From a virus, in the UHGV virus genome UHGV-1877853: DNA of 12,158 nt; one strand, 5' to 3'. Numbering within the stretch: the first letter of the stretch is position 1; every line of letters begins with the position of its first letter. This document shows, piece after piece, positions 973-5,206 of this stretch. Both the position numbers and the translations under genes were made by a program. The notes under the pieces are model-generated. The model was not told the origin of the DNA. It saw nothing but the letters and a program-made list of their open reading frames with translations, and ran no database searches.

Positions 973-1689
<717 letters not shown>

Positions 1690-1807: not shown

Positions 1808-2713
1808 ATGCCAAATTTACCGATGGGCGGATCGCAGGGTGAATTACCCTTAGTACCTACAGTAGAAGTTGTTGCTGATGGCATTCCTATGGGGGTGCTT
1901 AATGATGGAACCCCTTATCTAACTCTTTACGGTTTAGCCAAATTATGTGGCATAGATGAAGCACCTCTTCGAATGTTTACATCTAACTGGGAGACTGAAA
2001 AAAATAAGCCAAGAGGACAAAAAGTAGCTGCATACTTAGCTGAGAAAGGATTTAACAACGTTGACCGACTGTATACCCGCGTCATAAATAGCTCAAACGT
2101 TGAAACACATGCTTATCCTGACTATGTTTGTATGGCTATCCTCCGTTACTACGCTCTAGATGCCACCAATTTTGATAGGTCAGTCGCAATAGGTAATTTT
2201 GTTCGCTTGGCTGAGTACACGCTTAAGCGAATGATTTATGAAAAGTCAAATTACAACCCAAATGCTTCAATAGATATCTCATTCGAGAACTATAGAGCAA
2301 GGATTAAGCTAAACGATCAGATACCGACAACTCATTTTGCAGTATTCAGAGAGATAGCTGACATTGCCATGAACCTGATCGGAGGAGGATTCCCAATGGA
2401 TGACACCACATCTTTGGATGGAAGTGTTGGAATTCACTGGGGAAAGTATTGGACAGCTAATGGCCTATCTGAGAAATTCGGGGAAAGGGTGCAGTACCCA
2501 CATCTATTCCCCGAAAATTACAGGCAGTCAGCTGCAAATAAGCATATAAAAGCTTGGATTTATCCTATTGAGGCACTTGGCGTGTTCAGAAAATGGCTAC
2601 ACGATAATTACGCAATGGAAAAACTGCCAAATTACCTTGGGAACAAAAAGATTAGTAATGCCTCCGAGCTATTAGAGTTGATAAAAAAACCAGCACTCCC
2701 AAATAAGCATTGA
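1808..2713 (+). CDS. Hypothetical 301-aa protein occupying the rexA/rexB slot; possible KilA-N/Bro-N-like N-terminal domain; candidate prophage-encoded exclusion/abortive-infection protein (BstA-like hypothesis)
   Basis: Long ORF on the cI strand with an AAGGAA ribosome-binding site 7-8 nt upstream, followed by an intrinsic terminator. The region is visibly AT-rich compared with flanking lambda-like DNA. The translation does not resemble RexA or RexB as recalled. Confidence 0.8.
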   Translation: MPNLPMGGSQGELPLVPTVEVVADGIPMGVLNDGTPYLTLYGLAKLCGIDEAPLRMFTSNWETEKNKPRGQKVAAYLAEKGFNNVDRLYTRVINSSNVETHAYPDYVCMAILRYYALDATNFDRSVAIGNFVRLAEYTLKRMIYEKSNYNPNASIDISFENYRARIKLNDQIPTTHFAVFREIADIAMNLIGGGFPMDDTTSLDGSVGIHWGKYWTANGLSEKFGERVQYPHLFPENYRQSAANKHIKAWIYPIEALGVFRKWLHDNYAMEKLPNYLGNKKISNASELLELIKKPALPNKH

Positions 2714-2892: not shown

Positions 2893-2964
2893 CATACAGA
2901 TAACCATCTGCGGTGATAAATTATCTCTGGCGGTGTTGACATGAATACCACTGGCGGTGATACT
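2893..2964 (+). promoter_or_regulatory. Left operator OL3 (2893..2909), OL2 (2922..2938), OL1 (2946..2962) and promoter pL (-35 TTGACA 2936..2941, -10 GATACT 2959..2964)
   Basis: Lambda-type operator sites readable in the DNA; 17-bp spacer between the -35 and -10 hexamers; oriented toward N. Confidence 0.85.
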
Positions 2965-3191: not shown

Positions 3192-3518
3192 ATGGATGCA
3201 CAAACACGCCGCCGCGAACGTCGCGCAGAGAAACAGGCTCAATGGAAAACAGCAAACCCCCTGTTGGTTGGGGTAAGCGCAAAACCAGTTAACCGCCCTA
3301 TTCTCTCGCTGAATCGCAAACCGAAATCACGAGTAGAAAGCGTACTGAATCCGATAGACCTTACAGTGCTGGCTGAATACCACGAACAGATTGAAAGCAA
3401 CCTGCAGCGTATTGAGCGCAAGAATCAGCGCACATGGTACAGCAAGCCACGCAGTGAAATGGGTGTGACTTGTGTTGGTCGCCAGAAAATGAAATTAGGC
3501 AGCAAACCACTTATTTGA
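3192..3518 (+). CDS. N: Antitermination protein N (lambda-like, C-terminal region diverged)
   Basis: Translation from MDAQTRRRERRAEKQAQWK... matches the lambda N arginine-rich N-terminus; GGAG ribosome-binding site upstream of ATG 3192. The track ORF 3060..3518 is an in-frame upstream extension through nutL. Confidence 0.9.
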   Translation: MDAQTRRRERRAEKQAQWKTANPLLVGVSAKPVNRPILSLNRKPKSRVESVLNPIDLTVLAEYHEQIESNLQRIERKNQRTWYSKPRSEMGVTCVGRQKMKLGSKPLI

Positions 3519-3529
3519 GAGGAATTAAT

Positions 3530-4153
3530 ATGTCATCAATCCGCTTAACTACGAGAATGAAAGAGGAAATCGCTCGTAACGCTTTAATTAAGTCTGGGGT
3601 TTTCACTGAACTTGAAGAAGTAACAAAGTTAAAGAACCAGCTTGCACTTGACGCCAGAGTTATTGCGTTTGGCGGGAAAAAGAAAACTGAGGAAGTTGAT
3701 CAGTTATCATCCAAGTTGGTAGCTATAAGTGAAGAACTTGAAAAGATGGGATGTTCATTTTACTCATACGATGTTCGTTCTACTTCAATTTATCTGACTG
3801 CATCTGGCAGAAGGATTGGATGGCATTCATATGGGAAAGACGGCAACGGCGAAGATATATTGCTCCCTACTCCGAACAAAGATAAATGCATGTTTAGCGC
3901 AGAACACGAAATAACAAAAAGGTTTGATGAAATCTGCGCATTGCAACAAAAACTTGAAGCCAAGAAAAAGGATATCGAATCAAATGTATGGGCTGCTTTG
4001 AACTCAGTCACAACAGTTAAGCGACTTATTGAGGTTTGGCCTGAAAGCAAAGAATTGCTACCAAAAGAAGCAGATAAAGCAAGTACAGCACTTCCTGCTT
4101 TACGGGTAGAAGATTTGAATAAGATGATTGGACTTCCTTCCGAGGCCGCATAG
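3530..4153 (+). CDS. Hypothetical 207-aa protein immediately downstream of N (ral/sieB slot)
   Basis: ATG 3530 with a GAGAGG ribosome-binding site that overlaps the N stop; AT-rich; followed by a hairpin and T-tract. No family recognised. Confidence 0.75.
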   Translation: MSSIRLTTRMKEEIARNALIKSGVFTELEEVTKLKNQLALDARVIAFGGKKKTEEVDQLSSKLVAISEELEKMGCSFYSYDVRSTSIYLTASGRRIGWHSYGKDGNGEDILLPTPNKDKCMFSAEHEITKRFDEICALQQKLEAKKKDIESNVWAALNSVTTVKRLIEVWPESKELLPKEADKASTALPALRVEDLNKMIGLPSEAA

Positions 4154-4168
4154 TCGGCCTTTATTTTT
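4143..4168 (+). terminator. Rho-independent terminator
   Basis: AGGCCG (4143..4148) / CGGCCT (4155..4160) stem, then TTATTTTT; the stop codon of the upstream gene lies in the loop. Confidence 0.55.
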
Positions 4169-4216
4169 GGCATAAACAACAGAATAAACACTGCACTGAA
4201 TTATTTGAGGTGAGAT

Positions 4217-4687
4217 ATGACAAAATCACGGAGCGTACCTTTTCCTGAATCAGAAACTGAACATAATGGAATGCCTGTTTTCTGGAGATTCCAAGCGACA
4301 GTTGAAGAAGATGGAATCAAAATATTCGCACTTCAATATATAGCTTTTCATCAGACAGAGCATTATGCATGGTTGGTTCCTGCGCATTGGATTGTTGATT
4401 TTAAACCAGCACCAAATCAGTGGTTACAGGAATGGAAACAAAGGAGAAATAGATATGCAATTAAGAAAGTAGCAAAAAATGCAGAAAGATCTTTTGCATT
4501 CCCAACGAAGAAACTTGCTATTGAAAGTTTATTGCGTCGGAAGAAATACCATTTAATGAGAATAAAACAAGATTTGGCTGTTGTATCAACTCTTGTTGAT
4601 GGGATGAAAAATATTGATACATCAATACCAGATATTGAATATAACTTTGGACACAACCAAGAAACAGAAAATTGGGTATTTTATTAG
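4217..4687 (+). CDS. Hypothetical 156-aa protein
   Basis: ATG 4217 preceded by a GAGGTGAG ribosome-binding site; AT-rich; followed by a hairpin at 4702..4729 and a terminator at 4791..4816. No family recognised. Confidence 0.7.
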   Translation: MTKSRSVPFPESETEHNGMPVFWRFQATVEEDGIKIFALQYIAFHQTEHYAWLVPAHWIVDFKPAPNQWLQEWKQRRNRYAIKKVAKNAERSFAFPTKKLAIESLLRRKKYHLMRIKQDLAVVSTLVDGMKNIDTSIPDIEYNFGHNQETENWVFY

Positions 4688-4790
4688 TACGAATAAGCAC
4701 TGTGTATTCATTCCAACGAGTGAATACACGGAGCAATGTCGCTCGTAACTAAACAGGAGCCGACTTGTTCTGATTATTGGAAATCTTCTT

Positions 4791-4816
4791 TGCCCTCCAG
4801 TGTGAGGGCGATTTTT
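4791..4816 (+). terminator. Rho-independent terminator
   Basis: GCCCTC (4791..4796) / GAGGGC (4803..4808) stem followed by a TTTTTT run. Confidence 0.5.
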
Positions 4817-4837
4817 TATCTATGAGGATATGAATAG

Positions 4838-5206
4838 ATGTCAAACATCAAAAAATACATCATTGATTACGACTGGAAAGCATCAATAGAAATTGAAATC
4901 GACCATGACGTAATGACAGAGGAAAAACTTCACCAGATTAATAATTTCTGGTCAGACTCTGAATACCGACTCAATAAACACGGCTCTGTATTAAATGCTG
5001 TATTAATCATGCTGGCGCAACATGCTCTGCTTATAGCAATTTCAAGCGACTTAAATGCATATGGTGTTGTGTGTGAGTTCGACTGGAATGATGGAAATGG
5101 TCAGGAAGGATGGCCTCCAATGGATGGTAGCGAAGGAATAAGAATTACCGATATCGATACATCAGGAATATTTGATTCAGATGATATGACTATCAAAGCC
5201 GCCTGA
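4838..5206 (+). CDS. Hypothetical small strongly acidic protein (122 aa)
   Basis: ATG 4838 with a GAGGA ribosome-binding site; by eye about 22 Asp/Glu against about 8 Lys/Arg; tightly followed by the next gene. Confidence 0.7.
   Translation: MSNIKKYIIDYDWKASIEIEIDHDVMTEEKLHQINNFWSDSEYRLNKHGSVLNAVLIMLAQHALLIAISSDLNAYGVVCEFDWNDGNGQEGWPPMDGSEGIRITDIDTSGIFDSDDMTIKAA

Follow-up and report, generated by a model that had tools for sequence, protein, structure and literature searches.

The DNA analysed here, referred to as the window, comprises 12,158 nucleotides of the virus genome UHGV-1877853 and spans, in the reading direction of pL, the part of a lambdoid prophage that contains the immunity and early-left genes. 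The host prophage is an E. coli prophage of the ST131 type, and the window is 100% identical to prophages in E. coli ZH063, SaT040 and O25:H4 CU568-3. The gene order is lambda-type cI, a BstA-like gene, pL, nutL, lambda-type N, an Nmad5-family gene, the open reading frame ORF156 and ea10, followed by a TolA-like gene, cIII, kil, the recombination genes and int, which adjoins sbcB (for an overview see Table 1). No tRNA genes were found in the window. The exact arrangement N-Nmad5-ORF156 occurred in 48 of 5426 complete E. coli genomes, and ORF156 itself was carried by 598 of these genomes and by 82 phage records.

Table 1. Features of the ORF156-PreS region and its surroundings; positions refer to the window unless a locus (L number) is given.
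Feature	Position	Strand	Description
Lambda-type cI	976-1689		
BstA-like gene	1808-2713	+	301 aa; downstream of cI, in the slot of lambda rexA/rexB
pL	about 2936-2964		
Conserved 3' end of lambda-type N in relatives	L002 3958-4013; L003 and L005 equivalents		window counterpart 3465-3518
Nmad5-family gene	3530-4153	+	PF18757, E=9e-72; directly 3' of N
Intrinsic terminator after the Nmad5 gene	4142-4168	+	7-bp stem 4142-4161, then TTTATTTTT
Left flank	4155-4199	+	homologous to the lambda spacer just 3' of ral
GCACTG, left copy of a 6-bp direct repeat	4194-4199	+	bounds the inserted cassette
ORF156 cassette	4200-4696	+	497 bp; N 3'-end remnant with Shine-Dalgarno sequence (TTATTTGAGGTGAGAT), CDS, 9 nt (TACGAATAA)
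Shine-Dalgarno sequence of ORF156	4207-4213	+	GAGGTGA; 3 nt (4214-4216) before the ATG
ORF156 CDS	4217-4687	+	156 aa; ATG start, stop TAG 4685-4687; WP_001576833.1 'hypothetical protein'
Conserved non-coding block	4697-4817	+	121 bp; hairpin, PreS and tL2a; 100% identical to lambda
Hairpin, allele A	4702-4729	+	12-bp stem 4702-4713/4718-4729, loop CAAC 4714-4717, no T-tract after it
PreS (LPR1) sRNA	4731-4817	+	87 nt; ends as given by the primers that the authors used for cloning, in-vitro transcription and deletion
PreS seed	4766-4782	+	taken out by the authors in their seed deletion of lpr1; base-pairs with dnaN
Rho-independent terminator, lambda tL2a	4790-4817	+	PreS 3' end; 8-bp stem 4790-4811, T6 4812-4817
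ea10 homologue	4838-5206	+	DUF2528; next pL-operon gene
Salmonella-phage PreS-like loci	L136 1168-1300; L137 1175-1310		

The original prediction had described ORF156 as a stand-alone cargo gene with a good ribosome-binding site, and the reading frame and its Shine-Dalgarno sequence were both confirmed. Comparison with related loci showed that the gene belongs to an insertable cassette. At four loci (L008, L057, L088 and L114) the left flank of the window is joined straight to the hairpin without ORF156; at L008, the end of the Nmad5 gene, its terminator and the spacer (window 4120-4199) run directly into the hairpin. Relative to L008 the insertion amounts to 503 extra bp, i.e., the cassette plus a second copy of GCACTG. 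The 63-nt spacer upstream of ORF156 is lambda backbone. In 933W, HK97 and 683R2 the same cassette lies directly downstream of N, and its Shine-Dalgarno sequence overlaps the N stop codon (CTTATTTGAGGTGAGATATG), which argues that ORF156 is an ordinary N-dependent gene of the pL operon. A remnant of this N junction (TTATTTGAGG) is located upstream of ORF156 in the window and precedes the Nmad5 gene as well. A scan for sigma-70-like sites on the plus strand between 2964 and 6505 detected no promoter-like site, and thus none upstream of ORF156. A minus-strand promoter-like site at 4706..4678 (9 of 12 matches) was disregarded, as such sites were rarer than in shuffled sequences. The cassette would accordingly have been dropped, without a promoter or terminator of its own, into the spacer upstream of PreS. 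Transcription of ORF156 would start at pL and reach the gene only after N-mediated antitermination through the terminator at 4142-4168; it would therefore be a delayed-early gene.

The gene and the terminator behind it had been proposed to form a self-contained moron, possibly expressed from the prophage, with the hairpin as an accessory. ORF156 is indeed a discrete insertion compared to L008-type loci, and it is bracketed by two intrinsic terminators. However, both of these terminators are backbone elements, and the hairpin and the downstream terminator constitute a separate block which was found at 95-100% identity in lambda and in hundreds of phages lacking ORF156. The absence of a promoter-like site upstream and the overlap of the Shine-Dalgarno sequence with the N stop codon in 933W, HK97 and 683R2 also speak against an autonomous unit. 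Since ORF156 has no promoter of its own and the terminator is tL2a, the unit is not a moron in the defined sense, and we consider the moron explanation very unlikely. Morons of lambdoid phages were reportedly described by Juhala et al. in 2000. Compared to such morons, as they are cited in PMC4104026, ORF156 shares the position of an extra gene between neighbours that are adjacent in relatives, but differs in having neither its own promoter nor its own terminator. With regard to the upstream terminator, the homologous sequence after lambda ral is much weaker and barely pairs.

A minor observation concerns the N gene. The last approximately 55 nt of lambda-type N (encoding ...GVTCVGRQKMKLGSKPLI and the stop) are kept in front of ORF156 in 933W and HK97, too. 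The annotated N proteins of these two phages are of another type, and N of 933W ends earlier and in another frame. This arrangement suggests that a mosaic joint lies within the 3' end of N.

No family had been recognised for the ORF156 product in the original prediction. This was upheld by searches against Pfam, NCBIfam and PADLOC, which returned no family, but not by the PHROG profiles: ORF156 gave a full-length match to phrog_1636 (E=8.1e-110, residues 1-156 of 156 positions). This family includes gp45 of HK97 and L0079 of 933W and is annotated as being of unknown function. All 74 aligned relatives of ORF156 matched phrog_1636 as well, and Pfam searches with the same 74 sequences yielded scattered chance matches only. 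ORF156 is a member of the gp45/L0079/phrog_1636 family and a real gene that is conserved in phages, including the related prophages in which conservation had been at issue. We found 33 close homologues in Enterobacterales (Escherichia, Pectobacterium, Brenneria, Cronobacter, Rosenbergiella and Symbiopectobacterium), which are of equal length down to 56% identity, and a profile search added 87 more distant relatives of about 140 aa. Between close copies dN/dS was 0.04-0.13, and in distant pairs, in which synonymous sites were saturated, dN was 0.25. Based on these values, ORF156 is a gene under purifying selection.

The closest counterparts are HK97 gp45, 933W L0079 and the H-19B orf, which have the same length, 97-98% nucleotide identity and the same right-hand junction (TAG TACGAATAA GCACTG). 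The left side differs: in those phages the gene directly follows N, and its counterpart in the window is separated from N by the Nmad5 gene, the terminator of the latter and a lambda-type spacer. The window protein further differs from HK97 gp45 and 933W L0079 by an arginine at position 5 (W5R; codon 5 at 4229-4231), where the close family has a near-invariant tryptophan. Additional differences to 933W are D17N, N61D and T136I. The ORF156 copy of the ST131 prophage could thus be a weakened allele.

Of the two compositional features named in the original prediction, the Trp/His-rich N-terminus was confirmed (five Trp and four His within the first 73 aa), but the basic region is central and not C-terminal: residues 74-118 contain 16 K+R versus 2 D+E, and the last 38 aa are acidic. 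The homology and structure searches that had been suggested led to phrog_1636 and to a confident fold prediction. An AlphaFold2 model based on the alignment of 74 sequences (pLDDT 94.8, pTM 0.81) predicted a long sheet of three strands (19-55), short helices, one more strand and a basic helix of 33 residues (98-130), onto which structure a conserved C-terminal tail would pack back. No solved structural relative of this fold was found; sequence-profile searches of the PDB with two alignments gave a best hit of E=0.64, and a search of BFVD returned uncharacterised phage proteins only. Within the wide family only G33, T47, K87 and A101 are near-invariant, and these residues do not look catalytic. 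A literature search by accession, gene name and PHROG identifier found nothing on the protein. The family thus represents a widespread early phage protein with a confidently predicted fold and no solved relative, and the gene, although sequenced long ago in HK97 and 933W, is functionally unstudied.

At all loci examined, the ORF156 family occurred in an early operon. In addition to the position directly downstream of N in 933W, HK97 and 683R2, the gene follows one for a Cro-like HTH protein in L130, with another Nmad5 gene nearby; it precedes xis-int in Pectobacterium and lies beside a ParB-like gene in Bas81. The corresponding slot of lambda is occupied by sieB and ral. Because of these early contexts and the sieB/ral slot, we would guess, with low confidence, at a small binding protein: ORF156 might act early in lytic growth by binding a host or nucleic-acid target, in host takeover or counter-defence, a role that we put forward only tentatively. 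As it occupies a slot of anti-restriction and exclusion genes in lambdoid phages, ORF156 is a reasonable candidate for counter-defence screens.

The sequence downstream of ORF156 is of a different nature. An alignment of the window with lambda revealed that positions 4697-4821 equal the lambda ral-ea10 spacer base for base, and the stretch 4688-4820 as a whole is more stably folded than expected (z=-4.9). The sRNA LPR1/PreS is located between ral and ea10, and its 3' end is tL2a, a terminator of the pL operon with a GC-rich stem and poly-U (bioRxiv 10.1101/2024.10.31.621285); the location is restated in a review (PMC12197685). The terminator noted in the original prediction is therefore tL2a, at positions only slightly wider than the 4791..4816 given at the time, and the PreS gene lying between hairpin and terminator had been overlooked. 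PreS of lambda is Hfq-dependent and restricted to the lytic cycle, being absent in lysogens and appearing within 10 min after induction; it occurs as species of about 88 nt and, after processing, about 68 nt (sizes approximate), and its seed pairs with host dnaN, which is up-regulated so that phage replication is boosted (bioRxiv 10.1101/2024.10.31.621285). The 5' end of PreS (GAGCAATGTCGC, window 4731) was read from the authors' primers (Table S5) and not from mapped RNA ends. The same primers place the 3' end at the T-tract (4817/4818) and define a full deletion (4731-4817) as well as the seed deletion.

In the window, the lpr1 sequence is complete from its 5' GAGCAAUG to the U-tract, seed included. 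PreS has the Hfq-type 3' end with GC-rich stem and poly-U and is followed by ea10 within the early left operon. Accordingly, sequence, seed, terminator, operon position and downstream gene are the same as in lambda, the difference being the upstream gene, which is ral in lambda and ORF156 here. From this agreement we infer that PreS would be active in the window prophage.

The block was present in 327 phage records and in 2237 of 5426 complete E. coli genomes (about 41%), with up to 6 copies each; 20 copies were located on plasmids. It is invariant in lambda, 933W, HK97 and 683R2 despite differing neighbours. Across phages the gene upstream of the block is ral, ORF156 or Nmad5 and the gene downstream is ea10, cIII or that for a TolA-like protein, and in about 125 IMG/VR loci with the PreS seed the upstream gene was ral, ORF156, Nmad5 or another one. 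Among the matches listed, RefSeq annotation showed no feature under the block. A search of the window with Rfam 15, in which PreS is absent, gave nothing at the gathering threshold and chance-level matches only at E>1. An RNA-encoding block in some 41% of the complete E. coli genomes, including ST131 and Stx prophages, thus lacks an Rfam entry and, among the matches listed, a RefSeq annotation. An earlier label exists in the GenBank record of Sf6 (AF547987), in which two successive features, 'bsq4 boundary sequence' and 'terminator tL2A', cover the block. The 113-bp bsq4 begins 34 nt 5' of PreS, at the equivalent of window position 4697, and extends into tL2A. The mosaic junction of Sf6 contains the same conserved block, which the record treats as a DNA boundary and which is now known to encode an sRNA.

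Since the RNA part belongs to PreS/tL2a/bsq4 and the ORF to gp45/L0079/phrog_1636, the region is mostly already known: the former is the lambda PreS/tL2a block, the latter the HK97 gp45/933W L0079 gene. Taken as a whole, the locus is very probably best explained by two unrelated modules of the lambdoid pL operon, the block and ORF156.

Candidates for further elements or counterparts were rejected. The motif CGCTCGTAA, which differs at one position from the nutL and nutR boxA, lies in the conserved 5' portion of PreS (4740-4748) and a second time inside the Nmad5 gene (3571-3579). A reading of the PreS copy as boxA/nut was discarded, as five one-mismatch boxA matches were counted versus 3.0 expected and 38 of 200 shuffles reached five, which is chance level; the hairpin loop varies freely. 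The anti-sRNAs of EHEC (Tree et al., 2014) are located at PR' and were dismissed as counterparts. The Pas sRNA of another preprint is unrelated to the PreS block.

The remaining part of the block is the hairpin, whose 3' end lies 1 nt before the 5' end of PreS. It had been noted as a 9-bp-stem hairpin without T-tract; hairpin and missing T-tract are real, but the stem is longer, comprising 12 bp. For the hairpin plus flanking bases (4697-4734) the folding energy is -20.2 kcal/mol (z=-6.7), and none of 200 shuffled sequences was as stable. Because conservation of the block alone could be due to hitch-hiking, we searched for variants of the hairpin. In seven IMG/VR loci with lambda-type PreS, the preceding 34 nt were unrelated in sequence, yet formed an 11-bp hairpin in the same register. 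A comparison of these two alleles (A and B) showed both partners to be exchanged in 8 of 17 pairs, and all are still paired. In an alignment of 25 distinct hairpin sequences, 92% of the cells were paired, compared to 20-53% when the partners were slid by 1-3 columns.

Two more alleles were obtained from 103 further loci with the 5' segment that Salmonella-type PreS shares with lambda PreS. In total, 228 loci carried alleles A (12 bp), B (11 bp), C (9 bp) or D (11 bp) or one 16-bp variant, the four alleles probably representing only about three independent events. All four have a constant GCAC on the left and, on the right, one variable nucleotide followed by GAGC. At each of levels 1-8 of the stem, two to four types of pair (Watson-Crick or wobble) occur; levels 9-11 (A-U, U.G, U-A) are unchanging, and the loop sequence is free to vary; a few single sequences have one stem mismatch each. 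The retained U.G pairs fit an RNA of the pL sense and not DNA. In one allele-D variant (AATAAGCACCTAATGAACATTTTAATAGTGATCATTGT, a single IMG/VR locus), a doubly changed pair is A.A and hence non-compensatory, the sole such case in 42 distinct sequences. The flanking GCAC and GAGC could hypothetically pair and extend the stem (-20.2 kcal/mol), but this is not the minimum-energy fold in context; in that of 4697-4817, the first nucleotides of PreS pair within PreS and not with the upstream stem.

The covariation fits the original suggestion of an RNA processing or stability element. The suggested conservation as a unit was found as well, in that the hairpin is kept across phages, but the unit is the larger block which also holds PreS and tL2a. 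As the four alleles differ in sequence, keep the structure and adjoin the 5' end of PreS, we favour, with moderate confidence, a role of the hairpin in the pL transcript, either as a structural boundary or as a processing element. Cleavage by an endoribonuclease at the 3' base of the hairpin might create the PreS 5' end; the hairpin might also insulate PreS folding from the variable upstream gene, and cap and protect the 3' end of the upstream mRNA. The junction at 4730/4731 does not look like a preferred site of RNase E. For cutting by RNase III the 12-bp stem would be short, unless GCAC and GAGC pair. RNase P, which matures the C4 RNA of phage P1 and the CI RNA of P4, may be another candidate. 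The sRNAs CpxQ and SdhX are cut out of longer mRNAs. PreS resembles them as an Hfq-binding sRNA which has its terminator in common with a longer transcript and a shorter processed form, but it is situated inside an antiterminated operon instead of at its end, and a covarying stem abuts its 5' end. In the text of the PreS preprint (10.1101/2024.10.31.621285), the terms hairpin, precursor and biogenesis do not occur, and the origin of the 5' end is not stated. The compensatory evolution of the hairpin at exactly this end makes excision of PreS from the pL transcript directly testable.

Three other explanations of the hairpin were considered. The hairpin might be a 3' stabiliser of the upstream mRNA that blocks exonucleases, or a leftover of an upstream module, with no role in PreS formation and adjacent to PreS merely at a point of module recombination. 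Stable stem-loops without U-tract are classical 3' protectors, and the hairpin alleles tend to travel with particular upstream flanks (TAAGCAC...). On the other hand, allele A follows five or more unrelated upstream sequences and was found with lambda-type as well as Salmonella-type PreS; the gap to GAGC is always exactly 1 nt and the left flank GCAC is constant across the four alleles, and bsq4 of Sf6 comprises hairpin and PreS together. We therefore regard this explanation as unlikely.

It has to be weighed, too, whether the block is a recombination boundary at the DNA level, conserved for the exchange of flanking modules, with the palindrome as a feature of the DNA. Such a role is improbable as the main explanation, since the block gives rise to a demonstrated functional sRNA (bioRxiv 10.1101/2024.10.31.621285), the loop sequence varies freely, and the stem keeps U.G pairs, which at the DNA level would read T.G in this strand and A.C in its complement. 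The bsq4 label in the Sf6 record, the highly mosaic flanking genes on both sides and the GCACTG repeats at the cassette junction would nevertheless agree with it, and the DNA-boundary and RNA roles are mutually compatible.

Finally, the hairpin DNA might hold a dedicated promoter from which PreS is produced as a primary transcript starting at about 4731, the position that is treated as +1 in the authors' cloning. The lack of any sigma-70-like plus-strand site between 2964 and 6505 speaks against this, and in the 3' arms of alleles A-D the hexamers most similar to a -10 box agree, by eye, at 1-3 of 6 positions. Furthermore, the absence of PreS in lysogens and its rise within 10 min of induction are as expected of pL, and the covariation points to RNA structure. 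A promoter in the hairpin is thus extremely improbable. Returning to the processing or boundary element, a more far-reaching version, which we consider rather doubtful, would make the stem both obligatory and portable, as an element for biogenesis and insulation throughout a wider PreS family, including the Salmonella-phage version with another seed. A structure-specific endoribonuclease would then cut at the base of the stem and free the sRNA from N-antiterminated pL read-through transcripts, irrespective of the upstream gene. As a separate part of this doubtful version, the gp45/L0079 protein would be an early protein of new fold that disables host defence or seizes a host function.

The PreS-like RNA of Salmonella phages (vB_SosS_Oslo, SEN22 and about 60 records) has the same first 24 nt (GAGCAAUAUCGCUCGUAAC...), and its middle part with the seed and its terminator differ from lambda PreS. 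It may represent a second member of a PreS family with other targets.

Two further genes of the region were noted. The BstA-like abortive-infection gene matched phrog_6287 (E=4.9e-135) and BstA of PADLOC (E=2.9e-106). Point mutations in nmad5 enable Dhillonvirus phages to escape the Tmn defence (PMC11846954). In the unrelated phage OM837731 (L130), an Nmad5 gene (L130 4948-5580) is located about 1 kb from a distant ORF156 relative.
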